Source: a virus (Duplodnaviria > Caudoviricetes). Taken from it: DNA of 64,000 bases. The notes under the pieces were generated by a model. The model searched no databases and was not told the origin of the DNA. It was given only the letters and a program-made list of their open reading frames with translations. Where the stretch lies: positions 96,001 to 160,000 of the IMG/VR virus record IMGVR_UViG_3300015214_000026; one strand, written 5' to 3'. Made by a program: the position numbers and the translations under genes. Position 1 is the first letter of the stretch. The number at the start of each line of letters is the position of its first letter. Shown piece after piece: positions 1 through 41,784 of this stretch.

Positions 1-3000
1 CGTAATATTTAGTAAAGGCTTCCAAATTACCGCCTGGAACCGTGTATGAAGTAAGATTGCTAGTTTCATTTGAATCAAAATCTATGTTAGAGAAACCTGC
101 ATTTTTAGAAAACTGATACTGTGAAGCGGCGTGCGAAGAAGTCGGGTCTTGAGATACATAAGAGGATGTGGTAATAGTAGGAGTTAGCGAAATACCAGTT
201 GATCCTGTAACTGGACTAGTTATTGTAGGAGCACTAGGCGTAGCTCTAACAGTAAACTTAGTAGGTATAGACCAAGGCCCAGCTCCAATAGTAGTTCCTA
301 TATGTCTTACTCTCCACCAATACGTAGTAAAATTACTAAGAGAGGCTCCTCCCGGAACTTGATGCTGAATTAAATCAGAAATAGCACCAGAATCATATAC
401 GGGAGACAAGAAATCAGCAGAAGTAGCTATTTGCCACTGTGAACTATCATGAGTATCTGCTATAGACCCACCATATGAGAAATTACTAGACTGTAGAATA
501 GGAGTATTAGCGACACTAGTAGCGTCAGAAGCGGGAGCAATATTAGATGGCTGCCCAATAAAACTGAAATCAGGTTGTGTAGCAAAAGCGGTAGGATCGG
601 ACCAAGATGACCATTTACCAACGGAGTCTTGATAACGACAACGCCACCAATACAGATTATTAACTTCCAACAAGTCTGCGCCCGCTGGCACTGTAAACGT
701 AGTACCTGCACCTTCTAACACGTAAGTATGCTGAATAACATCTGAATCGCCGGCTAGAATACCATATGGTTCAGCATTCATACCTACAGCATTAAACTGG
801 GTACTAATACCAGAACCCGCTGGACGTTTTACCCAAGTTTGACCTCTATTATAAGAAGTCTGAATTTCACCGCTAGCGCCTACTGCTACTGCTTTACTAT
901 CTAACATGGTTACAGCCATGAAACTACCACCGTAACCACTAGCAGCGGAACGTGTAGTCCAAGTAGAACCAAAATCAGACGACGTTTGTATAGTACCATT
1001 AGCGCCAACCGCGATGGCATAACCACCTTCTGTAAGGGTTACGCTATAGAAAGTACCATTGAAAGCAGCGGCGGGGGTACGTACTGACCAATTAACACCG
1101 TAGTCAGCAGAAGTATGAATAGCCCCATTAGCTCCTACCGCAATACAACGGCCCGCTGTAGTCATAGCTACATCATAAAATGTACCCGTATAACCACCGG
1201 CAGTCATCACTGACGACCAGATAGATCCTTTATTGATAGACGATAATATCTTCCCACTAGCACCTACTGCAACCGCATAGGATTCATGGGCAGCCACGCC
1301 CATAATATTACCCGCAAATCCATCAACACTGGCGGCAGCCACCCAATTAGCGCCGTAATCTGTTGTATACACAACTCTACCAGTATTACCAACAGCTATA
1401 ATAGTATCCGAATGATTCCAAGCTACATCCCGTAAATCTCCTGAACCTACACCGGGTGTTACCGCCTCCCAAGTAAGTCCGCCATCTTCTGTATATATAG
1501 CTTTATTAGATGCGCCGACCATGATAGCTTCACGATCACTCAGCATTTCTATAGCATAGAATGTACCTGTTTGACCTGCTACGTTTACCCACGATACGAG
1601 AGTATCGCTAGAGGTATTGAGAACCATATCATAGAAAGATACATCTCTACTTATCTGGAAATGCGCACCAATTTGAGGCAATCCATATAACGATCTATAC
1701 GTAGAACCGGATAAAGTAGGGGTTACAGAAATATTAGTAGCTTGATCGGCGGGGGAAATATTTGTAGGCTTTTCAATACGATCAGAATCAAAATTCTGGT
1801 ATTGAGTAATAAGGGCAAAGCTATTAACTACTTCTCTATGGCCAGGAGTACCTTTATACGATATCCAAAACTCTATGGAAGTGTTACCGATAGGTATCCT
1901 ATACTCTTCTTCAGTAAACTGCGTAAATTCAACGCCATACGTCCGTACTAATTCAGCTTCTTTCCATATATCTGTACCAGCTTCCTTATATCGGACTTCA
2001 TACAGACCAGAACTATCAATACTATTACGCTGGATAATTAAAGAACCACCCGGCCAAGAATGTAGTGTACGAATAGGTCTAGAAAAGTATTCCTGATTAC
2101 CAAATACAGTAGCTGTACCGTCATTATTTATTTCAAACGACGTAGAACCTATTCTAGCACCGGCAGAAGCGGATACAGATATATTAAGGGTCTCTACCGC
2201 TCGTATAGTAGTTGGGCTGATGACACTAAATACTTCAATTATTGCTCTAGCTCCAGTGTCATCAAAAATGACATACTGATTACCGGGAGTGAAAGCATAT
2301 GCGTTTTCAACAGTTACAGTATCATCATTCTGCATGGTAGTGACACCTTGCGAAGATGGTAACTGACGCATGTTAAAGTCACGATTAGGAACCCAAAATT
2401 CCCAAGCGTAACCTTCATCATCATATCGCCACTGAAGTAAAAGGCCTCTCTTGGCTAGATTGATTTCACTAGTAGCAGAATCAAAAGCTATGGTTAACCA
2501 TTCATTGTCAACATATATTTTAAGGGTATTATTGTAATACCAATAAGACCCCTGCGCGGGTTCCTCTGGTTCGTCACCAATAACTACGTTTGCTTCACTA
2601 CCTATATAAGTATATGTAGTGCCAGTCCACATCATAAGACGAAAATCTTCTATTGATGTAGCATCGATATATACAAAAGGTCCTGGCGCAGAAGGTAGGC
2701 GATTATATTCGCGTATTACAGGAATACCAATAGGTTCATAAATTTGATCTATGTTATTCCAAACATAAATAGTATCTTGATACCTATAAAGAGGATATTC
2801 AAGAGTAGAAGGCAATACTTCCACAAATGGAATATTACGTAGATCGAAGCCATCGGATAACAAAGCCATAAGCTCTGGGCTAAGGTCGATAGACATTGAA
2901 TAGGTATCAGGTAATAATGGATTGGGCATAACTGGCCCAACTGAAATACTACTTGTGTCAGAAGTTACAGTAACATTATTAAATTCACCGGGTTCATTTC

Positions 3001-3315: not shown

Positions 3316-4503
3316 TTATAAATCAGGAGTTGGAGACGGGGCCGAATACGCCGCGTATTTAACTATAAAATTTGTTGCAGAAGTATCATGAACAGATATA
3401 TTAAATCCAGTGGTATCCATATCAGAAGACACAGCATTACCATCAGATGGATTTAAAATCTCTACTTTATTAGGTGTTACAACAAATGAATCTAAAGTAA
3501 CGGGATAATCTACCGCGTCTTGACCAATTAATAAACGACCTTCAGCATATATTGTATCTACTAATGACTGTTCAACATTCTTTGCTCGGCGCTCTAAAAT
3601 ACCTGGCGTAGTACCTATGTTAACCTGTAGACCACATACTAACCAATCATTGATAAAAGATGTATCTTTACCGGGTTCAAATAAAGTATCCACAGCCCAC
3701 CATTTAGACGAGGATGGAGGCATATAACAAGGAAATGATACTAGCTCCCATTCTCCTGTTCCAGTAACTTCCATGGAAGCTAAATGAGCGTCTAATTCTG
3801 ATAGGGCTTTAATTGTTGTGGTAACACCCGGCTGACCTTTTATTCTAAGCGTTACAGTGACAAATCTATTTTGAACAAATTTATAATCAAAAAAGAACGA
3901 ACGGACACCGCAGTTAGTTACATTACCCGAAGATGATATTCGTAATACTCTTTCAAAAGCAACATCATCCGCTTCTGTATCTTCTGTCTCAAACGAAGCG
4001 GTTAAATATCCAGCACTAGAAGGATACGAATATACGTACCAATTAGGTGCAAACATACAAGTATTTCCGTCAATACCCGTAGTAAAATTAACTTCGGCTC
4101 CAATATTTCTAGTAATAGTTAAATTACCATTGATAGCTAAATTTGAAGAACCCGCTATTTCAGTGATTTCACCATTAGCCCTAAGAAAAACTGCCCCATT
4201 AGGGGTCAATTCCATATATATTTCATTTGTTTTTTCGTTCTGAAATTTAATAGAGTCTTGATTAGTAAAGTCAAGTACTATATTATTTATTTCAGTTTCA
4301 GACACCATGCCTGTCAATTTCTGATATTGATTTAATATCAGGTTATCATCTACCCATCTAGGCAACCATCTAATAGTAGTGGCATCTTCATTTGTAAATA
4401 CACCAAATCGTCTATTTACATCGTCATAAAACATTTCGCCTATATAGACGAGCTCATTTTCACTAACAGCACTGGCTCGCCTAGCTTGAATACGTAAGGT
4501 CAT
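3316..4503 (-). CDS. Tail/baseplate-associated structural protein with a possible carbohydrate-binding jelly-roll region
   Basis: 399-aa ORF; ATG 4503 follows GGAG; beta-rich; in the fibre cluster. Confidence 0.6.
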   Translation of the reverse strand: MTLRIQARRASAVSENELVYIGEMFYDDVNRRFGVFTNEDATTIRWLPRWVDDNLILNQYQKLTGMVSETEINNIVLDFTNQDSIKFQNEKTNEIYMELTPNGAVFLRANGEITEIAGSSNLAINGNLTITRNIGAEVNFTTGIDGNTCMFAPNWYVYSYPSSAGYLTASFETEDTEADDVAFERVLRISSSGNVTNCGVRSFFFDYKFVQNRFVTVTLRIKGQPGVTTTIKALSELDAHLASMEVTGTGEWELVSFPCYMPPSSSKWWAVDTLFEPGKDTSFINDWLVCGLQVNIGTTPGILERRAKNVEQSLVDTIYAEGRLLIGQDAVDYPVTLDSFVVTPNKVEILNPSDGNAVSSDMDTTGFNISVHDTSATNFIVKYAAYSAPSPTPDL

Positions 4504-4515
4504 CGTTAACTCCAA

Positions 4516-5340
4516 TTAATATGGCAAGCCGCCAACAATTTGACCGTCATTGCTTACACCGTCTATATAATCCGAACCACCTACCGTAGCAGAATATTCA
4601 GAATCCGGTGTAGTATATAAATATCCAGAAATAAAATCATATTGAGTAGGAGAATAACTATCACCTTTAATACCACCATCTAAAATACCAAATTTAGGAT
4701 CGCGGTAATTCTGGAACATAGCTATACCCCAATATGTACCATCGCTTCTCTTAGAAACCATAGCGGGGGATTTAGTACGAGTATCATAGTTAACTACAAA
4801 CTGGGAATAAGGATTCAAAGAAGGCGGCGGCACAGAACTTTCAGTATCAAAAAATGAAAGATTGGCATATTCAGCAGTTACTACTGTAACGCTAGGAACA
4901 GGTCCAAAAATAGAATGTTTTATATCAACATGAATAACAAAACGGCTACCCGGAACAGGTGCTGCCAAAGTTTCATTTAAATTGGGATCGCTACGAATCT
5001 TCTGTACTGCAAAAGGAAGGCTTATAGATAAAAAGGGTATTTCTGTACCATCTAAATGAGTACCAAATACTACTAAATTACCCATTGAAAATGGTCCAAT
5101 ACTTTCAGGCAATAAAATAGTATGTCTAACTGTATCATCAGCAATAGCTTTACTTTGAGTAAGACCGGCGTAACCAGTAAATACTATATCACCTCTAGCA
5201 ACTTCATCTGTTTCAGAAGGTTCAAATCCAAATTCTGTACCAATCTGAAAACTATGAATAGACATTACACTGAAGCCAGTTAGAGCCCCAGTGACTAATC
5301 TTTTACCTTTAGCAACAAATTTTGCTTTAATATCAGCCAT
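4516..5340 (-). CDS. Baseplate/tail-fibre attachment protein (P2 gpH N-terminal/DUF3751-like)
   Basis: N-terminal G..L...F.IG pattern and GPF..GN.L motif; paralogous to 5396-6622. Confidence 0.55.
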   Translation of the reverse strand: MADIKAKFVAKGKRLVTGALTGFSVMSIHSFQIGTEFGFEPSETDEVARGDIVFTGYAGLTQSKAIADDTVRHTILLPESIGPFSMGNLVVFGTHLDGTEIPFLSISLPFAVQKIRSDPNLNETLAAPVPGSRFVIHVDIKHSIFGPVPSVTVVTAEYANLSFFDTESSVPPPSLNPYSQFVVNYDTRTKSPAMVSKRSDGTYWGIAMFQNYRDPKFGILDGGIKGDSYSPTQYDFISGYLYTTPDSEYSATVGGSDYIDGVSNDGQIVGGLPY

Positions 5341-5395
5341 TTTAATATCTCGTTACTTGTTGTAACAGAATTAACGTAAACAATGTGGATTTTCA

Positions 5396-6622
5396 CTAAT
5401 TAATTACACTCATTAGCTGTAATACTTCATTTGAAGGCTCATCGCCAAATCTAGCATAAGAATGCTTTTCTCCAAGCCATTTATTTTGTAAATTAGCTGT
5501 AGTACCTTCTCGTTCTATAACAAATACAGTAAATGGCGCATCGTCTATAGATACAGCAGGGCTACCATTCAAACTACCTCTAATTACAGATTGGAACCAT
5601 GACATTCCTATTTTAAACATAATTCCATCCGCTACATAGCCTACAGAAACTTCTTTAACTAAAATATCATCTAGAATGATTAGAAATTTTATATGCTTAT
5701 CATCTGGATCGCGAATAATTTTCATACTATTAGATTCGCTACCATAGTCCATCTGCCACAAGACTTCCATGTCAAATGAACCTATTGAAGCCGTAGCAGT
5801 AATTATGATAGCTCCACAGCTACACTGTACATCATACAGTGTATTACCCTCTATGTCTTCATACCCACCAACTTCATCAAAATACGTTTGTTTATTAGTA
5901 GTATTTAATTTAGGCCAACCCATCCAAAAATTATTAATCGAATAGTTAGCTTGTCTATTAGGCGATTTTCCAATTGGTAATACTTCTAGCCACGGATAGC
6001 GAGTTGCCCAAGTCTCGTATAATTCATCGTATTTTTTAATAAAGGGGTTACTCCAATAGTTTCTACCAGAGCTAATAACTATAGCGGGTGTATTTAATCT
6101 ACCGTCATTTTCTACAAATAATTGGTTAACTGGCTCTTCCCAAGCCCATCTGGTTACATCTAAATCAGTAGCAAATGTTTTGAAAGTAGCTACCTTCTGA
6201 TTAAGATTTGATAAATCAAAGCGATCAATTAAGCCTGGTATATTAATAATGATATTGAATATTAATTTCGTACCTACAGATGTTAGGGTAGTTTGAAATT
6301 TAAACATAGACGATTGAGAAATAGATATAAGAAAAGCTATACCATCATTCGCCCTAAGTAATATATTACCCGGTCTAAATTCAAGGACTTCTTTTCCTAT
6401 TTCACATGAAATCAATACTTCATCGGTGTGAATAGGCGTAATGAACATGGATTCAATTCCGCCTGTATGAAGTAATTGCCCAGCTACCGCAGTAGAATTT
6501 CTGTCTACAACCTCTCCAATACCCGACCCTATTTCGAATCCAGTAAAAACAATCTTTTCTATAATATCATTGCTCTGATCTTGTAATAACTCTAGGCCGG
6601 AGTTTAGAAGAAAGGTTTTCAT
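5396..6622 (-). CDS. Tail-fibre attachment protein paralogue with a C-terminal beta-sandwich (LamG-like) region
   Basis: First ~200 aa align by eye with 4516-5340 (FEIGSG/FQIGTE, FRPGNI/FSMGNL). Confidence 0.5.
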   Translation of the reverse strand: MKTFLLNSGLELLQDQSNDIIEKIVFTGFEIGSGIGEVVDRNSTAVAGQLLHTGGIESMFITPIHTDEVLISCEIGKEVLEFRPGNILLRANDGIAFLISISQSSMFKFQTTLTSVGTKLIFNIIINIPGLIDRFDLSNLNQKVATFKTFATDLDVTRWAWEEPVNQLFVENDGRLNTPAIVISSGRNYWSNPFIKKYDELYETWATRYPWLEVLPIGKSPNRQANYSINNFWMGWPKLNTTNKQTYFDEVGGYEDIEGNTLYDVQCSCGAIIITATASIGSFDMEVLWQMDYGSESNSMKIIRDPDDKHIKFLIILDDILVKEVSVGYVADGIMFKIGMSWFQSVIRGSLNGSPAVSIDDAPFTVFVIEREGTTANLQNKWLGEKHSYARFGDEPSNEVLQLMSVIN

Positions 6623-32591: not shown

Positions 32592-32861
32592 TTACGATGG
32601 ATATGGGTTATTATGTAATGACATGGCGTAACCAGTCATAGCCGCATCCATTAAATCATCGGTATAATAGGCGGTAGCTTCTCTACCATGCTTGTAATTA
32701 ACTCTATACTCATCAGTATTAGAAAGCCTAGTAATGGTCAGGCCCATTTCTCTAAGCTCTTTCTCAACTTCCTTAAATTTCTTATTGGCTAACTTTGCTT
32801 TAAATGCGTTCATGTTAACTACGTTGGAGGCAGTTTCATTAATATAACGTATATAATTCAT
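32592..32861 (-). CDS. Hypothetical protein with shared leader MNYIRYINETA
   Basis: 89 aa; TAATG-coupled to the upstream gene. Confidence 0.8.
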   Translation of the reverse strand: MNYIRYINETASNVVNMNAFKAKLANKKFKEVEKELREMGLTITRLSNTDEYRVNYKHGREATAYYTDDLMDAAMTGYAMSLHNNPYPS

Positions 32862-33928
32862 TATTTATCTCCGTATATAGCTTGATAACCTTCGTACCAG
32901 TAGGTCTTAACCAGCTCTTGTTCTTTTAAAGTAAGCTTATGCTTGGAATCATTTTTAAATAGAATACCCAATACCATTGGTATATATTTTGTGAGTACAG
33001 CGTTATTAAAATTAATCCTTTTTAAAAAATCTATTATATCTGCTTTAGTTAAATGCAAACGCCCTTCTATAATTCTAAAAATATCTTCTAAATAGTCTTC
33101 TGTTATGTATATCCAGTGTATAATATCAGAATATCGTACCTTATCCATAAGGTATATAAACTTAACAGAATGAGCTATTCTATAAAAAATCTTCCTCAGC
33201 TCTTCTACAAACTTAGGCTGCTTTTCCAATAAGTCCACCCAATTAATTTCGTTATCTTTATAGTCCATAAATTGATGGGCTTCGTCTTCGGAAGTGTCAA
33301 ACCAAAATTGATATTTCTTACCAGTTTTCTTATCTAGAACTATGTATAAAGGACCTTCACGATTATATACATCGAAGGCGTTATTTTCATCCGCTCTAGC
33401 AGTACACCATTTAGTATTAATTCCGAAATAGCAGGAGGCTTCTTTAGTATAGGGTATAACTACTTCTACTGTAGATGATTCATACAATTTCTTTGCAGCT
33501 TTATTCTTAAAGAACGATTCATCCTGCTCTTTAGTACGTCCGGCGGCTTCCTGATATTGATTTACTACATCAAATAATTCATCGTCATTCTTAATACGAT
33601 TAATATCTTTATGCTCGTAGCGTAATTTATTCATACGCTTTAATTTATCATAAGTCAATAGAGAAGCGGTTAGAGTAGGTAAATCTTGTTTAAATAAATA
33701 AAAAGATTTATTAGACCATTTGAGTATACCTTTAGTAATTATCCACTGTAAATATTGCTTGTTTTTAGTAGGATCAGCGTTGAGTATAAGCTTCCATATA
33801 AGGTCTCTATTTCTATCCGACGTTTCTACAAGATTACCGTATTTTTTGGATAAAATTTCCCATTTTTCTCGTAATATAGCTAATTTATCTTCTCTTGAAG
33901 CTTTCTCAAGATATCGAATATACCGCAT
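32861..33928 (-). CDS. ADPT/WCT-motif protein (possibly PcfJ-like) with leader MRYIRYLEKA
   Basis: ADPTKNKQYLQW, ASC.FG.NT.WCTA, GPLYIV and QFMD motifs; paralogue of 52231-53877. Confidence 0.7.
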   Translation of the reverse strand: MRYIRYLEKASREDKLAILREKWEILSKKYGNLVETSDRNRDLIWKLILNADPTKNKQYLQWIITKGILKWSNKSFYLFKQDLPTLTASLLTYDKLKRMNKLRYEHKDINRIKNDDELFDVVNQYQEAAGRTKEQDESFFKNKAAKKLYESSTVEVVIPYTKEASCYFGINTKWCTARADENNAFDVYNREGPLYIVLDKKTGKKYQFWFDTSEDEAHQFMDYKDNEINWVDLLEKQPKFVEELRKIFYRIAHSVKFIYLMDKVRYSDIIHWIYITEDYLEDIFRIIEGRLHLTKADIIDFLKRINFNNAVLTKYIPMVLGILFKNDSKHKLTLKEQELVKTYWYEGYQAIYGDK

Positions 33929-33937
33929 AGTAATTAC

Positions 33938-34414
33938 CTAGATTATCTGACCGCGACCACGGCCGGAACGGTCGTATTCTAAATCTGGTGTAGTAGTTTC
34001 ATATTCAACAAATACACGAGTTACAGGCTTAACATACTCGATACGATCTATTCTAGCGTAAAAACCGCTTTTAACTTCCGTATGATAAGAAGTAGCCATC
34101 TTTTTAGTAGAAGTATTTTGTCTGCGCCAAGGCTTAGACACCTTAATCTTTTCGTCTTTAATAAACTTCAAAGCAACATTCATAAATCTACCATCAGGAT
34201 CAGGTATTTCAAATTTAGCCGTAAAGGTTTTTACTTTGGTTTGATGGGCGTTAGGGTAGTCGCCATCATAAAACCCCTTCTTAACGTATCTTCGCGTACT
34301 ATCGTCTTCTGTATCAGCTAATACTTTAAAACCATTAGACAATAGGTGCTCTTTGAATCTAATAAACCTATTACCTTTAGGCGCAGCCGTTTCAATATAT
34401 CGAATATAATTCAT
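33938..34414 (-). CDS. Basic hypothetical protein with leader MNYIRYIETA
   Basis: 158 aa from ATG 34414. Confidence 0.8.
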   Translation of the reverse strand: MNYIRYIETAAPKGNRFIRFKEHLLSNGFKVLADTEDDSTRRYVKKGFYDGDYPNAHQTKVKTFTAKFEIPDPDGRFMNVALKFIKDEKIKVSKPWRRQNTSTKKMATSYHTEVKSGFYARIDRIEYVKPVTRVFVEYETTTPDLEYDRSGRGRGQII

Positions 34415-34542
34415 CAATCTGTCGCCTTCTTAGGAAGCCATTTAGGTTGACGGAGACCCTGCGCTTTAAACCATTCTGCCAGAGGTTGAGGTTCGGGAAA
34501 TCTACGTAGTTTACCGTAAACAGTCATTAGAAGCTCTTTCAT
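34414..34542 (-). pseudogene. Displaced original 3' end of topoisomerase IB, inside a 42-codon mini-ORF
   Basis: 34494-34414 encodes EPQPLAEWFKAQGLRQPKWLPKKATD*, 14/26 identical to and the same length as the present topoisomerase C-terminus. Confidence 0.8.
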
Positions 34543-34557
34543 AGATAGGACTTTAAA

Positions 34558-35316
34558 TTGACTAATGAAGAATTAAGAAAATTAATAGGTACTAAATATA
34601 AAACTAAACGCTCAGGTGTATGCAAAATAATTGATGTAATAACTATAAAATCAGGTAATAGGAATAGATCTAGAATAGTATTAAAATTTTTAAAAACAGG
34701 ATACATAAAAGTAACTACATATAGACAATTGATTGATGATGGTACTCATGGTGGGGTTTCTGATCCGTACTATCCTCGTGTTTGTGGGGTAGGTTTTATA
34801 GGCGAAGGTGATTATAATACTTCTTCCCATAGAAGGCTTTATGGATTGTGGCTATCTATGTTGAATAGAGCTTACAAACACCCTTCTTATACAGAAATAT
34901 CCGTTTGCTCAAGGTGGCTAAATTTTCAAAATTTCGCAAAAGATATACAAAAGAAACGTAATTGGAATACTCCTAATTTTGAATTAGATAAAGATTTAAG
35001 AGTTTTCAATTGTAAAATATATTCTCCTAAAACTACATCTTTCGTACCTAGAATTTTAAATGCTATGTGTAGGCAAGGTGGTAGAGGCTATTCTTATACA
35101 GACTGGGGTTATAGAGTAGTAACAACTATAAATAATAAACCAAAAAGTTTTGGGACATTTAAAACAAAAAAGAAAGCAAAACAAGTTTATATAAAAGTTA
35201 GAGCGGAGGCTATTTATAACGTGGCATTAAAGTATAAAACTCAATTACATAAGGAAGTTCGAGCTAATCTCTTAGATCGAGAAAAGCTCGAAATTTGGTT
35301 ACGTACTAAGCGCTAA
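34558..35316 (+). mobile_element. Free-standing HNH-type homing endonuclease gene, antisense to the operon
   Basis: Y..W..ML.R.Y, VC.RW.NFQNF, ELDKD, YSP.T..FVP..LN motifs; AP2-like C-terminus; only credible plus-strand gene in the late region. Confidence 0.85.
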
Positions 35317-37136
35317 TCCTTAGCTGTTGTAGGCACCCAGCGAGGCACACGAAGTCCTTGATCTTTAAACCATTTTATTAGATATGGCGTCTCAACGTAT
35401 GACTTGACCGTTGTTCTCCAAAGCGTAGCCCCTGTACCGGATTTATGCCCCAATAGAATAGCGATAGGGGTAAGAATCTTCTCGATAATAAACTGCTCAC
35501 CTTCCTTCTGCGACCTAGAAAGATTACCAGAAGCCTTTACAGAAAGATTAAATTTCTCTTTCTTCAATAGATCAAGCATAAGATTAGTACCACGAACACG
35601 ACGCATCTTATGTGGCCCGGCAGGGTATCCAGATTCTTTAAGGTACTGAATGTACGCAGCATATGTTAAAACAATAGGTTTTTTATTTTTGTTTTTATTA
35701 GGTACAGAAAAGACGAGATCAGTCTTTTTCTTTCCTGCCATAAGCTTCTCAAGATTCTGATAGACTCGCTTAGTAAGACCATCAGAAGGATCAACCTTAA
35801 TAATATGTTGCTGCTCCAATCCAGTTTTGCTTGCAGCCTTACCTTTGTATTTCAAAAATATACTATTTTTACGTAATGAAATATGTGTAGGTCTAAGAGA
35901 AATAGCTCCATACGTAGCTTCACCAGACTGTGAAGCTGCAGAAGTCTGTCTAGCACCTACGCGCATAGCAGTCATATAAATCATGACGGAAGCTGTAGCT
36001 CCCATCTTCTTTAATGGGTCTGGTGATGTAAGGTCCTTCTTCCATCTAGCTAATACAGAATTAATCTTACTAGTCACTTTCTGCGTATCAGAAGATATTT
36101 TAGCAGAAGATTTATTCAGATGCGATTCCGTATATACTCTAGTAATACCTGCTGCCACATCAGAAGTATACGTTAGATATCCACCTTCGCCAGTCTTAGG
36201 GTTATACCTAGCGGATAATTTAATATCTTTAGCATTACTAGGTATATTCTGAGCGATTGGTCGATCATCGCCTGTATAGAATTTAGGTTTACCTAACACC
36301 ATGCCTAATTTAAGCGGGATATTCTTCGGTACATTGGGTATTTTATGAATTTTATACCCTAGTTTAGTCATATGCTCGTAGGCATCTTGAATTTTAACAA
36401 CACTAGGATTTTTACTGGATATGTATCCAATAAGGTCTTTATCGTAGGACGCACCTAAATCTCTACGCATTTGCGCATATCTACGAGCGCGATCTAAGTT
36501 TTCACCACCCGCTCTACGCATTTCTACAATGATTTTATTTGGTACGCTTAGTACGTCTAGCTTGGCTTTCTTACCAGTAATGTCGGCTACCAATTCAGAG
36601 AGTTCTCTCTGTAGATCAACTATGTTATTCTTATTTCCAGAAGTCGAGCCATGAATGCGCTCTACAACTTTCTGAAAGTTACGGTAATATGCAGCACTAA
36701 TAGTAGCTGCGTGTTTCTTAGCCCGTTCTACATAATTAGCATTCTTAGTAGGATTCTCCAAGAATAGTACAGAAAATTTAAGCAAAGACACTTCATCAGT
36801 AGAAATATTAGGGTCCTCAACCATTACCCTAATAGAATCTTTAAGCGGCTTCGCAAACATCTTCATATTAGAAGGGTCAGAAGATGAAAATTTAAAGAAA
36901 TTGTCCGGTATAGCATAGTTTTTGAAAAATCTAGGATTAACTAAATCTCTCATTATAGCCGCATTTTGATGGGCGGATTTCTTACCTTCACCATTGCCCG
37001 CTAATTCAACTAATCCTAAAGCTAAAAGGAAAGCTCCTAATTTAGTAAATTGAGTGGGAGGCAAATTTGCTACCTCCACACTCAACATTGATTTCATGTA
37101 ATTTTTTAAATATGTACTTTTAGTATAGTTATTCAT
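35313..37136 (-). CDS. Type IB DNA topoisomerase with a long N-terminal extension
   Basis: Catalytic pentad in order: MRVG (R), YKGK (K), HKMRR (R), LGH (H), KSYV (Y); TYG..SLR..H motif. Confidence 0.85.
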   Translation of the reverse strand: MNNYTKSTYLKNYMKSMLSVEVANLPPTQFTKLGAFLLALGLVELAGNGEGKKSAHQNAAIMRDLVNPRFFKNYAIPDNFFKFSSSDPSNMKMFAKPLKDSIRVMVEDPNISTDEVSLLKFSVLFLENPTKNANYVERAKKHAATISAAYYRNFQKVVERIHGSTSGNKNNIVDLQRELSELVADITGKKAKLDVLSVPNKIIVEMRRAGGENLDRARRYAQMRRDLGASYDKDLIGYISSKNPSVVKIQDAYEHMTKLGYKIHKIPNVPKNIPLKLGMVLGKPKFYTGDDRPIAQNIPSNAKDIKLSARYNPKTGEGGYLTYTSDVAAGITRVYTESHLNKSSAKISSDTQKVTSKINSVLARWKKDLTSPDPLKKMGATASVMIYMTAMRVGARQTSAASQSGEATYGAISLRPTHISLRKNSIFLKYKGKAASKTGLEQQHIIKVDPSDGLTKRVYQNLEKLMAGKKKTDLVFSVPNKNKNKKPIVLTYAAYIQYLKESGYPAGPHKMRRVRGTNLMLDLLKKEKFNLSVKASGNLSRSQKEGEQFIIEKILTPIAILLGHKSGTGATLWRTTVKSYVETPYLIKWFKDQGLRVPRWVPTTAKD

Positions 37137-37171: not shown

Positions 37172-40100
37172 TTACATCTTTGGACGGCTACGAGGACGCT
37201 TAAGTTTAAGTATTTCATCCTTAACGTCAACTAGATCACGTTTAATCTGCTCTATATCAATAGAACGGATAGTAGATAAATTACGAAGGTCTTCCATAGC
37301 TTCGCGAACGGATTTAAATATATTAATCCACATAGCTTCATTCTTACGAATATTTATTACGCCAGGGAACTTAGCTCTGTTACGTCCTAACCACGCTATA
37401 AATCTAGGATCGTGACTATTAGTATCAAACGCAAGAAGAACATCGGTTTCATTAACAATCCAATATGGATTAACAATTACCTTACCATTCTTCGCGGTTC
37501 CTAGCTTTTTACGCTGATCTAAGAAGAAGTTACGGAATTTCTGAAGATTAATCTGTTTAGTAAGCTGCATCGCCTTACCATCACGGATTTCTTCCATTTC
37601 TTCTTTCAGGGCCTCATAAGTTTTATCGGATATATGCATCTTGGAGTCGATAATATCCAATAGTTTTTCCGCTGCCGCCCAACTACGGAAGGACACGGAT
37701 GTAAATGGGTCGATACGATTCCAGCCATCAAGATTCTTTAGTTCCTTAATGTCTTCGTCAACAATCAATGCTGGCCAACTATTAAGAATACCAGCATAGA
37801 TTTCTACTTCATCCTTATCTTCTTCCTCGTTATCGAGGTTGTCTTCCAACATTTCGATAACTTCTTCTTCATCTTTCAGCTTAGTTTTATCAACCTTAGC
37901 TGTACCAGTAACCCCCAATGGATCGAATGATTCATTACGCCATTTGATAGGGTCTTTAACAGTCTTAGCGAATTCCTTATATCTAGAAGGCGCCGCAACA
38001 TGAACAGTGCCTTTCTTTAAGGAAACAGTTCTACCATTATAAAGCTGTACTTTAACAGCCTTCTTCATAGAAGCCTTAACAATAGCTGGACCAAATTCAG
38101 TATAGATAACTGTTCCAACCGCTACGTCATTATTACCAAGAACTGTAAACCCGTAATTATTAGGGTCTGGTGGAAGAGCATTACGAATAAATGGCACATA
38201 AACACGTTTAGAGCCTGGAATTTTATAAGTAGATTCCACTTCATACATAGCAAGCTGTATGAATTTATTGATATCCATGATATTACCTTTGCTATCAAGC
38301 AAATCTATATCATGTTCATGCTCCAATTTTTCTGCCATACGCCGCTTGGATTGCTTATTTAAAGCGTTTTCCCAATGAATATATGTTTTCCATGCCTGGA
38401 AATAAGGTTCTAAATCGTAATCTCTAGCATGGAAAATAAGTTGAAGATTCATCTTCAACATCTTCAATTCATCAAATTCATTGGATACCTGACGCCATTC
38501 CATACGACCTTCATAAGTAAGACGCGCATTAGAAATATATTTAGAAATAAGACGCGCTATCTTAACACCATCCAAAGTAGGTTGATTATTAGGAAGACGA
38601 GTCATTATCCAAACATGGCGAACCGAATCACGATTATACTTACCACGCGGATCAGGTCTATACATACGAGCACGGGCTTGCTTATGTTCACCGGGAGCCC
38701 ACACACTCTGCATACGGCAGATAAGAGAAGTCATCTGTAGGTTGAAGCCTTCACGCATACTTCCTTCTGTAGCGCAAAGGATAATATTGTTAGGGTTAGT
38801 TTCAAATTGCCGAACTACTTCTTCATTACCAGCGGTATAATGAAGAGATTTAGACGCAAATTTACTGTGTCGCATAAAGTGTTCTGCAGAAACTATATTC
38901 CATCCAAACACTATGATCTTATTATGAGGAAGATCATCTTTATGCTTTATAACATGCTCTTCAATAAGTTTATCAGTAAGCCGAACTTTAGGAGAAACCA
39001 AATCTTCTCCAGAAGGCTTACGTTCCCAAGCCATATATTGGTCATTAGAATCAGGAGCAACAAGGAACATTTCCACTTTTTGTAAATGAACCTTGGCAGC
39101 TGCTATAATGCGTGCTTCTTCTGCGTCGTCGCCTTCTTCTCCTTCGTCATCCTCGTCTTCATCTTCTTCGTCGTCATCATCGTCATCTTCTGATTTTATC
39201 TTCTTCTTAGATTTCTCTAGTTCTAGAAGAATAAGCTCCGCTTCTTGCATAAGAAGATTATAAAATTCATGCTGTAATGGAGTCATATTAGCAAACATGA
39301 CTTCATCATCCATTGCTGGAAGCATGTAAGCCCAATCTTCCTCATTCGCTTCGTGATAAGCCGTGGTAGCCTTCAACCTATCTTTAATCTTCTTGGCGTC
39401 TTCATCAGATTTGATAAGACCTTGGCTAAGACCGTATCTATCCGCGAAAGCCACAGGGTCATCACCAAATATATAAGGGGATATGGCTCTACCTTGACCA
39501 ACTAAGTCAGGAACGGTGTTAGCTACGATAGTACCCGACATAACGTCGCGATTATCTGCGTGTGAGAAAATCGCATAGCTATTTCTCGAACGGGCGGATT
39601 CAGGATTTTTAATCATATGGCTTTCGTCACCAGAAATAAATCTGATACCGAGAAGCTTTATAATAAGCATAAACTGAGTAGTAGGTATAGAAAACTCGCA
39701 AAACCCATCAACCAGATCAAGATCAGGGTATAGTTTACGCCTAGAAGCGAGTGAAGAATAACTACCGACAAGAATTGTATTCTTTGGGAGTTTTTGATAC
39801 CATTTCAGAAGTTTAGCAAAAGTATTAATACCAGAAATTCTAGACATACGCCTAAGAGTAATGGGTGTAAACGGTATAGCATTAATTTCACCCTTACAAA
39901 TCTGGTTGATTTCAGTAACAGTACCACGAATAAGATTAGCCTTGGTAAGGATCATAGGAATCGTCTTGGTATTAACGATACCGAAGATCGATTGCACAAT
40001 ACTAATAATGGTCTTGCCGCCGCCTGTGCTGACTGACTTAATAGACTGATGCGGCGATTTAATCGCCGAGGAAAGAATACGACCCTGATGCGGGAGTAGC

Positions 40101-41734
40101 CCTGTAAGACCACCCTTTCCTACTTTTATATTTGGAATATCGAAAGTTTTAATAGAGGGGTCGGGCTTGAATTTAGCTTGTTCTTCACGCCAAGCTTTAC
40201 GATAAGTATCGATGGTTTTTTCATCATACTTATCTATAGCTTGTAGGACATATTCTACGCCAATAAGACGATGAATAATACCTTGCGATTTCATTCTAGC
40301 GGGAAGTTTTAGAGCCTCTTTATCAGATTTACGCGCTACATTAAGATACTTAATAAGGGCTTTAAGGGCTTTAACTAATGGAATAAGGCCGTTTACTTCT
40401 TCAAGTTCTTCAAGATACCCACCACAAACGTGGTATAAGGTAACGTCATCTACATTGGCAGCGTTGGTAGCATTAATTATGTTTGTATAGATACGAATAG
40501 CAGGAAGATCACGAAGGATACGCTTCGCTTCTTCATCAGAAGTATATTTCTCAGCTTCACTTCCATCTATATCTTTTAACGATTCTGTGATAATAGAAGT
40601 AATGGGCGTCATTACCGAAGCTTTAAGCGGCGTAGACAAATAATTATATTCAGTAACAGGGTCAAATGGAGCTACATCACCTAGATCATACGTAGATAGA
40701 ATGCCGGTTGAAGTGGTATACGCTAGAATATCGTTTACCCAATCGACATAAATAATGGCATCGCCTAAGCCATGCTCATCGACTAGAAAATCGCGGCGAA
40801 ACACTCCATCTTCATCAATACAAGAGTTACTAGTTTTAATAAACTGCTCAACTGTATCTCTATTTGGTGGAATAAAAATAGGATTGCCAGAACCATGGAT
40901 AGCAAATCCAGCCTTATTCACCTTAGGGCGAATAGGGCCGAGCTTCAACATGGCATTCTTATGCGCAGACACTTTTCTAGGGTCTACGATTTTATTAAGT
41001 CGATTCTTAGTAAGACGTAGTGAGTTATAAACCCACAGATAAACTAAATAAGCAGAAAATTCATCAGAATCTATAACTTCTTTATAAACATCGGCTTCTA
41101 ACTCGATACCTAAAGTAAAATCCAGATTAGCTGTATGTGTATCAGAATTGTACTCTGGTGTTTTTATATATATTTTAAATTCTACAAAATCATCAAGCGG
41201 GGTTAGATACTTTTCTTTGAAAGTTTCAAGAGCGGGTGTCAGCGCCGTCATCACAGTTGGGCTGATATCCATATTATAGATATGCTGGAAAAAAGCTGAT
41301 AACGTAATCCCCTTACTAATATCTTTGGGGAAGAGCTTTATGACTCTTTCTACTATTTCTCCACCAATATTAAACAAAGATTCCGTAAATTCAATCGCAA
41401 TAGGTTTAGTTTTTCCATTGCCTGGCTTAACCATAGCAGTCTCACGAAGGCGATCTGCTGTAACTGGTTCTGCGTATGGGTTTAAGTCAAACCCAATTAC
41501 ATTGGCCATATCGATGGTAGAAAATTCTTCATTCATAGTACCATTAAGCAGCGATCCCATAATTCCAAGACGGAACAATGAGTTTGCGTTTAGTACTATG
41601 CCGTATAGATTCTTTTTCACCATTTCCATAGGGCTGGTGAATTTAGTCCCAACGTTTGGCCGACGAGCGGCCGTTTCAGGCAGATCAGTAGAAAAATCCG
41701 TCTCAAAGTTACGCTCAATGCTCGGCGAATCCAT
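37172..41734 (-). CDS. Large SNF2-family SF2 ATPase/helicase (~1520 aa)
   Basis: LLPHQ, TGGGKT, DESH.IKN, SGT, SPK, EG.NLQ, W.P...QA.AR..R motifs; GAGG RBS before ATG 41734. Confidence 0.9.
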   Translation of the reverse strand: MDSPSIERNFETDFSTDLPETAARRPNVGTKFTSPMEMVKKNLYGIVLNANSLFRLGIMGSLLNGTMNEEFSTIDMANVIGFDLNPYAEPVTADRLRETAMVKPGNGKTKPIAIEFTESLFNIGGEIVERVIKLFPKDISKGITLSAFFQHIYNMDISPTVMTALTPALETFKEKYLTPLDDFVEFKIYIKTPEYNSDTHTANLDFTLGIELEADVYKEVIDSDEFSAYLVYLWVYNSLRLTKNRLNKIVDPRKVSAHKNAMLKLGPIRPKVNKAGFAIHGSGNPIFIPPNRDTVEQFIKTSNSCIDEDGVFRRDFLVDEHGLGDAIIYVDWVNDILAYTTSTGILSTYDLGDVAPFDPVTEYNYLSTPLKASVMTPITSIITESLKDIDGSEAEKYTSDEEAKRILRDLPAIRIYTNIINATNAANVDDVTLYHVCGGYLEELEEVNGLIPLVKALKALIKYLNVARKSDKEALKLPARMKSQGIIHRLIGVEYVLQAIDKYDEKTIDTYRKAWREEQAKFKPDPSIKTFDIPNIKVGKGGLTGLLPHQGRILSSAIKSPHQSIKSVSTGGGKTIISIVQSIFGIVNTKTIPMILTKANLIRGTVTEINQICKGEINAIPFTPITLRRMSRISGINTFAKLLKWYQKLPKNTILVGSYSSLASRRKLYPDLDLVDGFCEFSIPTTQFMLIIKLLGIRFISGDESHMIKNPESARSRNSYAIFSHADNRDVMSGTIVANTVPDLVGQGRAISPYIFGDDPVAFADRYGLSQGLIKSDEDAKKIKDRLKATTAYHEANEEDWAYMLPAMDDEVMFANMTPLQHEFYNLLMQEAELILLELEKSKKKIKSEDDDDDDEEDEDEDDEGEEGDDAEEARIIAAAKVHLQKVEMFLVAPDSNDQYMAWERKPSGEDLVSPKVRLTDKLIEEHVIKHKDDLPHNKIIVFGWNIVSAEHFMRHSKFASKSLHYTAGNEEVVRQFETNPNNIILCATEGSMREGFNLQMTSLICRMQSVWAPGEHKQARARMYRPDPRGKYNRDSVRHVWIMTRLPNNQPTLDGVKIARLISKYISNARLTYEGRMEWRQVSNEFDELKMLKMNLQLIFHARDYDLEPYFQAWKTYIHWENALNKQSKRRMAEKLEHEHDIDLLDSKGNIMDINKFIQLAMYEVESTYKIPGSKRVYVPFIRNALPPDPNNYGFTVLGNNDVAVGTVIYTEFGPAIVKASMKKAVKVQLYNGRTVSLKKGTVHVAAPSRYKEFAKTVKDPIKWRNESFDPLGVTGTAKVDKTKLKDEEEVIEMLEDNLDNEEEDKDEVEIYAGILNSWPALIVDEDIKELKNLDGWNRIDPFTSVSFRSWAAAEKLLDIIDSKMHISDKTYEALKEEMEEIRDGKAMQLTKQINLQKFRNFFLDQRKKLGTAKNGKVIVNPYWIVNETDVLLAFDTNSHDPRFIAWLGRNRAKFPGVINIRKNEAMWINIFKSVREAMEDLRNLSTIRSIDIEQIKRDLVDVKDEILKLKRPRSRPKM

Positions 41735-41784
41735 GTTTTTAACCTCTATCAAATTCAATTTATGCTTTTGAGAATATCTCAAAA

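Follow-up and report, generated by a model that had tools for sequence, protein, structure and literature searches.

The stretch analysed here, which we call the window, is 64 kb of a 170-kb phage genome from IMG/VR (positions 96,001 to 160,000 of record IMGVR_UViG_3300015214_000026), and positions are given in window numbering unless another locus is named. On the minus strand, a gene for an SNF2-type helicase (37172-41782) is followed by a gene for a type IB topoisomerase and then by the feature we studied, which appears to be a homing-endonuclease cassette set into the 3' end of the topoisomerase gene. A predicted endonuclease open reading frame (ORF) runs convergently to the topoisomerase gene, and the stop codons of the two overlap by 2 nt. 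Back on the minus strand, 63 bases past the start of the endonuclease ORF, lies a second version of the end of the topoisomerase gene, which we call the relic. The TGA of the relic shares bases with the next gene's ATG (34414-34412). We rechecked the coordinates from an earlier sequence-only reading of this DNA (the tyrosine codon, both gene ends, the antisense ORF, a mini-ORF and the TGATG overlap) and found them all correct (Table 1).

Table 1. Features at the 3' end of the topoisomerase gene, in window numbering.
Feature	Position	Strand	Basis
Type IB topoisomerase gene, functional hybrid copy, 611 aa	35313-37148	-	PF01028, phrog_23460, alignment of 14 homologues
Presumed catalytic tyrosine codon TAC, Y584 in K-S-Y	35397-35399	-	Invariant in alignment
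Synonymously recoded tract, putative left co-conversion tract	35394-35480; left limit fuzzy, ~35439 to 35480	-	Codon counts and haplotype switches
Replacement 3' end, putatively cassette-borne, 26 codons and stop, ETPYLIKWFKDQGLRVPRWVPTTAKD	35313-35393	-	14/26 aa and 45/81 nt against the nearest relative's end
Predicted free-standing endonuclease ORF, 252 aa: Tudor/SH3-like barrel, atypical HNH-like core, AP2-like domain	34558-35316	+	PHROG and model
Endonuclease gene upstream region; AGGA 7 nt before TTG start, motif TACCGTAAA at 34512-34520	34495-34557	+	
Relic of native topoisomerase 3' end, 26 codons and stop, EPQPLAEWFKAQGLRQPKWLPKKATD	34414-34494	-	22/26 aa and 54/81 nt against P0002/L003
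42-aa mini-ORF holding the relic, probably not a gene	34414-34542, ATG at 34542	-	ORF list
Downstream gene, ~158 aa, MNYIRYIE leader, ATG overlapping the relic stop	33938-34414	-	ORF list

The topoisomerase protein matches Pfam PF01028 over residues 356-572 (E 1.4e-13, 51.2 bits against a cut-off of 23.7) and phrog_23460 (E 5.5e-38), and the profile of its family matches the solved topoisomerase I or TopIB chains 6z01 and 2f4q. When we aligned it with 14 homologues (40-81% overall identity), S583-Y584, H568 and the motif HK.R.VRGT were invariant. The pattern LGH(568)...K-S-Y(584) is the same in all 15 sequences, and the Pfam and PDB alignments end before the tyrosine. Type IB topoisomerases carry their nucleophilic tyrosine in an SKxxY-type motif, and from this we presume that Y584 is the nucleophile. 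The C-terminus reads K-S-Y(584)-V-E-TPYLIKWFKDQGLRVPRWVPTTAKD and then stops. The full-length protein aligns end to end with its homologues, and the replacement end retains the L, R, P and W that the alignment shows to be invariant in the family.

Catalytic-site codons are typical insertion points for introns and inteins, and the locus could in principle be a group I or group II intron, or an intein, that is removed from the topoisomerase by splicing. We give almost no credence to this explanation. The nuclease ORF runs antisense to the topoisomerase gene, the upstream copy closes in frame at a stop codon of its own, and the protein is full length and alignable. Rfam found no intron family at E<=1 over 34000-36000; it gave only a chance match to a CRISPR repeat (E 0.97), and we dropped the intron readings. 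The element had already been described as intron-less, and we agree.

The current gene end and the relic are the same at 14 of 26 residues (BLASTP E 5e-10, for a single pairwise comparison). When all loci, cut into six-frame pieces, were searched with a profile of the family's last 40 residues, the relic matched at E 1.9e-12, so its resemblance to a topoisomerase end is not chance. We took the three closest homologues with their flanks (P0002, P0003 and P0004, at loci L003, L001 and L004). In all three the next gene directly follows the topoisomerase and there is no endonuclease. The relic shares 22 of 26 residues with the end of P0002, whereas the current end shares 14. In DNA, the relic matches 54 of 81 positions at L003, 56 at L001 and 52 at L004, against 45, 39 and 49 for the current end. 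The gene ends of these relatives read SYVE(P/V)(Q/K)PLID...KWLPKKA(T/S/E)D. The alignment of the relic with L003 does not end at the stop codon but extends into the opening bases of the gene that follows, and the native L003 end has the same stop/start overlap with its next gene as the relic has. Because the relic is nearer to the relatives' ends and this junction has been kept, we read the downstream copy as native and the copy in use as imported. On these comparisons the relic is the native topoisomerase end, and the current ETPYL...AKD end was brought in.

The sequence-only reading had proposed that the cassette imported a foreign, recoded gene end that displaced the native one, and the counts above bear this out. 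It had also predicted a relic-type end in relatives that lack the HNH gene. We found this in P0002 (SYVEPQPL...KWLPKKATD), and an ETPYL-type end is present in none of the nuclease-free relatives. The loci where the next gene follows the topoisomerase directly are L001, L003, L004, L008-L010 and L019-L024. At least ten other topoisomerase IB loci, including four cultured phages, have neither a nuclease gene nor a second copy, and we found no second copy of the topoisomerase end in the cultured phages RHph_I42, PaBG, Lu11 and Motura. The nuclease gene is a presence/absence polymorphism: it is found in the window, L012 and L007 and is absent at at least ten related topoisomerase loci. Scans of viral and metagenome contigs with the topoisomerase profile contributed few extra loci, and a DNA search of a phage collection with the locus gave no match.

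Upstream of the protein-level breakpoint, the residues are conserved and nearly every codon is synonymously changed relative to L003 and L001. For example, the window has AAG TCA TAC GTT GAG where the relatives have AAA AGT TAT GTA GAA. We counted synonymously differing codons among codons for identical residues, in the 27 codons before the breakpoint and in the 150 that precede them. The window differs from L003 at 22 of 27 codons, compared with 53 of 141 upstream (Fisher p 2.5e-5), and from L001 at 19 of 27, compared with 54 of 141 (Fisher p 0.002). The control comparison of L003 with L001 gave 12 of 27 and 51 of 138, which is not significant, and the synonymous excess is confined to the window's lineage. 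The imported tract begins about 13-30 codons upstream of the tyrosine, and the coding stretch around the tyrosine has itself been swapped for a recoded version. A genome that carries the nuclease would need a recoded tyrosine region to avoid cutting itself. The breakpoint had previously been placed one codon after the tyrosine. That is right for the start of homology with the relic, but not for the recombination point, as the recoding extends 13-30 codons upstream.

The locus with the nuclease gene is also covered by contigs from four sequencing runs that belong to other studies (sludge, wastewater and bioreactor). These contigs have low depth, and the following counts omit 110 less-supported differences. 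Run X6 has 0 differences from the window at 34903-35070 and at 35088-35438, and run X7 has 2 at 35080-35450. On the flanks, X6 has 14 differences in 181 nt (35432-35612) and 18 in 188 nt (34029-34216), and X7 has 8 in 183 nt (35458-35640). This amounts to 0-2 differences per 168-371 nt in the 3' half of the nuclease gene and the new end, compared with 8-18 per ~180 nt in the flanks, or ~99-100% identity across strains for the former and 4-10% difference for the latter. The 5' half of the nuclease gene differs by 1-3%. Third-base changes at 35439-35484 are common to all four runs, as are changes at and below 34462, and haplotype switches are shared at ~35439 and ~34462. The near-identical block also takes in ~45 nt of upstream topoisomerase sequence and probably includes the first third of the relic. 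This mosaic is the pattern expected from, and suggests, recent homing with co-conversion.

The same layout of new end, nuclease and relic is found at four independent topoisomerase IB loci, two of them with HNH-type ORFs and two with PD-(D/E)xK-type ORFs. All four relics start between -1 and +2 codons from the tyrosine codon, at profile positions 12, 11, 9 and 10, which are the E, V/I, S and Y of K-S-Y-V-E. L012, a 4-kb contig, has the closest nuclease homologue (P0021, 49% identity), which is convergent with, and overlaps the end of, a topoisomerase IB gene whose product is 46% identical. The L012 relic, INPSPVSEWFIKHNLRQPAWLPRKATME and stop, resembles the native end of the related P0011 gene (L019), and a second, paralogous nuclease gene lies behind it. 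The tandem HNH-type genes (762-1529 and 1691-2431, plus strand), with the relic between them, are 39% and 49% identical to that of the window, and look like a nested or serial invasion.

L007, a 180-kb phage contig, has a 34% identical nuclease homologue directly downstream of the topoisomerase gene and no clear relic. Between these convergent genes is a perfect GC-rich hairpin (5753-5772, ggtgggga-ttaa-tccccacc) that is probably a bidirectional terminator. Such a hairpin is absent in the window, where the two genes overlap at their stop codons.

The other two loci have the nuclease ORF on the same strand as the topoisomerase gene. At L016 a 277-aa PD-(D/E)xK-like ORF (3614-4447, plus strand) lies between the topoisomerase gene and a relic that begins VNYIAPELQTQFF. 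It matches Pfam DUF7487 (E 3.8e-15) and a PHROG family annotated as endonuclease, with a weak match to a TnsA-like endonuclease N-terminal domain and another to the zinc-finger family DUF4379 (E 0.0025, below the Pfam cut-off). At L011 a 315-aa PD-(D/E)xK-like ORF (5113-6060, plus strand) lies between the topoisomerase gene and a relic that begins TYSDPGAMVQYF; the PHROG families that it matches carry the annotations endonuclease and Holliday junction resolvase. Both ORFs, which sit at the same site of distant topoisomerase IB genes, are candidates for new homing endonuclease families. The DNA identity of the two gene-end copies of L016 is ~88% outside a single 8-nt block directly after TAC ATA G, which has the appearance expected of a split target site.

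The close identity of the L016 copies would fit a recent local duplication there, and the two ends in the window are clearly homologous. One could therefore suppose that a gene end was duplicated in tandem, that an unrelated nuclease inserted between the copies and that the copies then diverged in place, with no import. We consider this very improbable. Of the two copies, the functional one is under selection and is the one that has diverged more from all three close relatives, the synonymous recoding reaches upstream into sequence that was never duplicated, and the new end moves with the nuclease gene across strains. Even at L016, the differences are clustered in the single block after the tyrosine codon instead of being spread out.

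The endonuclease ORF of the window is intact and full length, with its family-invariant residues kept, and its TTG start is preceded by AGGA. It matches the PHROG families 953, 2081 and 374, annotated as HNH endonuclease, at E 4e-35 to 1e-21. It has 7248 relatives at E<=1e-3, and tblastn gave matches in 1227 phage records, of which Vibrio phages account for 787. Relatives elsewhere adjoin DNA polymerase, exonuclease and clamp-loader genes, and the next-closest ones (P0022-P0024) are not beside topoisomerase IB. The gene is single copy in the genome, and its GC content is 28-34%, compared with 37-43% in the topoisomerase gene. We found no usable match in Pfam (including no HNH family), NCBIfam or PDB sequences, and Foldseek with models of the full-length protein and the core returned nothing at E<=0.001. 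The full model has a pLDDT of 95.6 and three parts: an N-terminal Tudor/SH3-like barrel with a CarD-type match (Z 6.1), a central core (pLDDT 89 when modelled alone) and, at residues 174-251, a C-terminal AP2/GCC-box-like domain (Z 4.7). The barrel covers residues 1-62 (34558-34740, plus strand) and resembles the RNA-polymerase-binding domain of CarD. We infer that the ORF encodes an active endonuclease.

We think it quite likely that the locus is a composite homing-endonuclease cassette, in which a free-standing, antisense nuclease of the atypical HNH plus AP2 type travels with a stand-in for the 3' end of the topoisomerase IB gene. The nuclease activity, the cut site and the repair pathway are what we infer from the layout. 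The nuclease would cut a cassette-free topoisomerase IB gene at or beside the catalytic-tyrosine codon, and the break would be repaired from a co-infecting phage that bears the cassette. At the upstream end, recombination within the topoisomerase gene would import the synonymously recoded, cut-resistant stretch together with the new 26-codon end. The downstream end would pair with, or be joined to, the old gene end. The recipient's own piece from the break onward would then survive as a non-functional relic, and could later serve as the right-hand (downstream) homology arm. As the cassette itself supplies the displaced end, the topoisomerase gene would need no intron or intein to stay intact. 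Such a mechanism would leave relic boundaries clustered at the tyrosine codon, a recoded tract upstream and a mosaic relic, linked to the cassette in its 5' part and host-like in its 3' part. Variable gene content downstream of the topoisomerase would be no bar to its spread.

Several points weigh against this reading. No ETPYL-type end without a relic, which would be a donor, was found, and none of the four runs has a cassette-free allele of this strain, nor a contig that skips the cassette. The cross-strain contigs are of low depth, as we said. Run X4 has a 1-nt insertion at 34737 in the nuclease ORF (depth ~6), possibly from decay of the nuclease gene in some strains or from an assembly error. 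The best nuclease match of the modelled core is the HNH enzyme PacI (3m7k) with a Z of only 4.2 over 81 aligned residues, and its matches to ColE7 and E9 are weak (34-35 residues, E 4-10). In addition, the canonical HNH histidine (HH or DH motif) is replaced by D-K-D (D144-K145-D146, in the motif L-D-K-D-L...N...N). The name HNH gene, used in the earlier reading, is supported by the PHROG families, but the protein is an atypical member because of this replacement and the weak fold match.

Some of these points would also fit a fossil, that is, a cassette that homed in the past and whose nuclease is now inactive or domesticated (for example as a DNA-binding protein only), leaving the locus immobile. 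The missing histidine, the lack of a Pfam HNH match, the weak fold match and the possible frameshift in X4 all favor it. However, D-K-D is invariant across 73 diverse members of the family, which makes it the family's normal state and not a lesion, and the nuclease ORF is full length. The near-identity of the 3' half of the nuclease gene and the new end, despite diverged flanks, points to recent spread. We therefore consider a fossil unlikely.

Beyond this locus, we tentatively suggest that the tyrosine codon of topoisomerase IB is a convergent homing hot spot, where at least two unrelated nuclease families have built the same gene-end cassette. The recoded end would give immunity and the relic would act as the downstream homology arm, and the arrangement would be a general and overlooked third route into essential phage genes, besides introns and inteins. 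We would place this proposal a little short of probable.

The sequence-only reading had held that the relic is kept for translational coupling, as a 42-aa mini-ORF under selection to keep the next gene coupled. The retained TGATG overlap, as at the native L003 junction, is consistent with this, as is L016, where a chain of overlaps joins the nuclease stop to the relic ORF, whose own end is 7 nt short of the next gene. We did not find this claim to hold up and regard it as distinctly unlikely. There is no purine-rich Shine-Dalgarno sequence before the ATG of the mini-ORF, a 17-nt deletion inside the relic in run X3 (34475-34491) ends the mini-ORF early, and at L012 the relic is followed by the second antisense nuclease gene and not by a coupled gene. 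Within the relic, AAGAAGG is suitably spaced from the next gene's ATG and may be that gene's own ribosome-binding site. The relic is better explained as a neutral remnant or a downstream homology arm than as a coupling device.

The base at 34417 is altered in all four other strains, which abolishes a candidate TTG start, so we place the start of the downstream gene at the ATG. The relatives we checked have no homologue of this gene in that position. At L003 a homologue of the window's 355-aa gene (55% identity) directly follows the topoisomerase, and at L004 the gene after the topoisomerase shares only the leader with the ~158-aa gene. Consecutive genes downstream of the topoisomerase (32592-34417 on the minus strand of the window, L003 from 3391 onward and L004 from 6811 onward) begin with M(N/R/S)Y(I/F)(R/K)Y(I/L)E.A and have unrelated bodies. 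This leader is so similar in DNA that it lengthens the alignment of the relic with L003, and it could be a recombination point that shuffles the downstream genes. Further along the minus strand come several small genes in a row and a gene for an NAD-dependent ligase.

The TACCGTAAA motif occurs exactly once in the window. Among 33 loci, we found it only 25-38 nt upstream of the four topoisomerase-linked HNH-type nuclease genes: besides the site in the window (plus strand), these are L007 6549-6557 (minus strand) and L012 717-725 and 1658-1666 (plus strand). It is not upstream of nuclease family members that adjoin other genes. The motif is near-palindromic, TTTAC(G/C)GTAAA, reading YACCGTAAA in the nuclease-sense strand, and is followed 6-7 nt on by a TA(T/G)AA(A/G)-like hexamer. 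A stretch TTTACGGT(A/G) upstream of all four genes is identical in DNA while the topoisomerase codons of their hosts differ, so it may be a cassette-borne promoter or operator, or the remnant of an old target. A longer relic in another frame (ACG GTA AAC TAC GTA GA, T-V-N-Y-V, with a 3-nt deletion and an 8-nt insertion) was considered and is countered by this DNA identity. The motif may be a promoter or operator of the cassette, or a degenerate copy or remnant of the T-V part of the target.

Homing endonucleases have been thought to enter essential genes only through introns or inteins, or to sit between genes. The locus points to a third option in phages, which is an element that carries a spare gene end. 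Such a layout would account for short orphan ORFs in annotated phage genomes and for gene ends there that look hybrid, and it means that the C-termini of conserved phage genes may differ in history from the rest of the gene. It also gives testable target sites for two uncharacterised nuclease families, and the phage populations of sludge and wastewater offer occupied, empty and decaying alleles in which to study the life cycle of the element.

The closest likeness in layout that we can describe is to the mobile endonuclease ORFs (mORFs) of fungal mitochondria, where the native C-terminus stays behind downstream of an inserted foreign one, as in atp6, atp9, cox2 and nad3 of Glomus (PMC3630166). 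The same swap of a C-terminus by an mORF is recorded for atp6 of Allomyces macrogynus, in a 1994 report as cited in PMC3630166. Both systems have the gene core, a foreign C-terminus, an endonuclease ORF and the native relic downstream, and in both the relic resembles close relatives while the inserted end is divergent (PMC3630166). They differ in that ours is in a bacteriophage and not an organelle, and in that the nucleases are atypical HNH/AP2 and PD-(D/E)xK-like here but LAGLIDADG or GIY-YIG there. The window nuclease is encoded antisense, with no in-phase fusion, and the target here is the catalytic-tyrosine codon of topoisomerase IB, apparently used repeatedly by unrelated nucleases.

Some integrative elements insert into the 3' ends of tRNA genes and carry a replacement 3' end. 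There, as here, a mobile element restores the gene it interrupts with a copy of the displaced end. The tRNA-gene elements depend on a site-specific recombinase and on an att core that is identical, whereas our locus would involve double-strand-break repair and has a diverged, recoded end.

In phages, the Seg and Mob enzymes of T4 are free-standing homing endonucleases, and their spread is known as intronless homing. Our locus resembles those of free-standing phage homing endonuclease genes (HEGs) in having a nuclease beside an essential, conserved gene and in its presence or absence among relatives. It also shares their flanking co-conversion and mosaic boundaries at the nuclease gene (PMC10448857); in ICP1-like phages, islands of HEGs lie at recombination boundaries (PMC10448857). 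The classic free-standing HEGs lie between genes and have no duplicated gene end, whereas here the element is inside the reading frame and has left a relic.

The nuclease itself is best compared with the IPA-HNH class (ICP1-like phage AP2-associated HNH) of Barth et al. (PMC10448857), whose members are free-standing, lie next to essential phage genes and have a divergent HNH-3-like core with a C-terminal AP2 domain. The window protein, compared with the class by its published description, likewise has a core too divergent for a Pfam profile and an AP2 fold. The PHROG match (E 4e-35) and the AP2 fold (Z 4.7) fit this class, and the paralogue at L012 matches Pfam AP2 at E 0.01. The extra N-terminal Tudor/SH3-like barrel is a difference, as it is unmentioned in the published description of the class (PMC10448857).

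We found no phage precedent for a nuclease-linked duplication of a gene end, or for topoisomerase IB as a target, in the literature searched, with subscription journals mostly outside its scope. Free-standing nucleases with co-conversion are known from phages and the swap of a gene end is known from fungal mORFs; what is new is this layout in a phage topoisomerase IB gene. Its interest comes mainly from the apparent convergence of unrelated nucleases on one catalytic codon.

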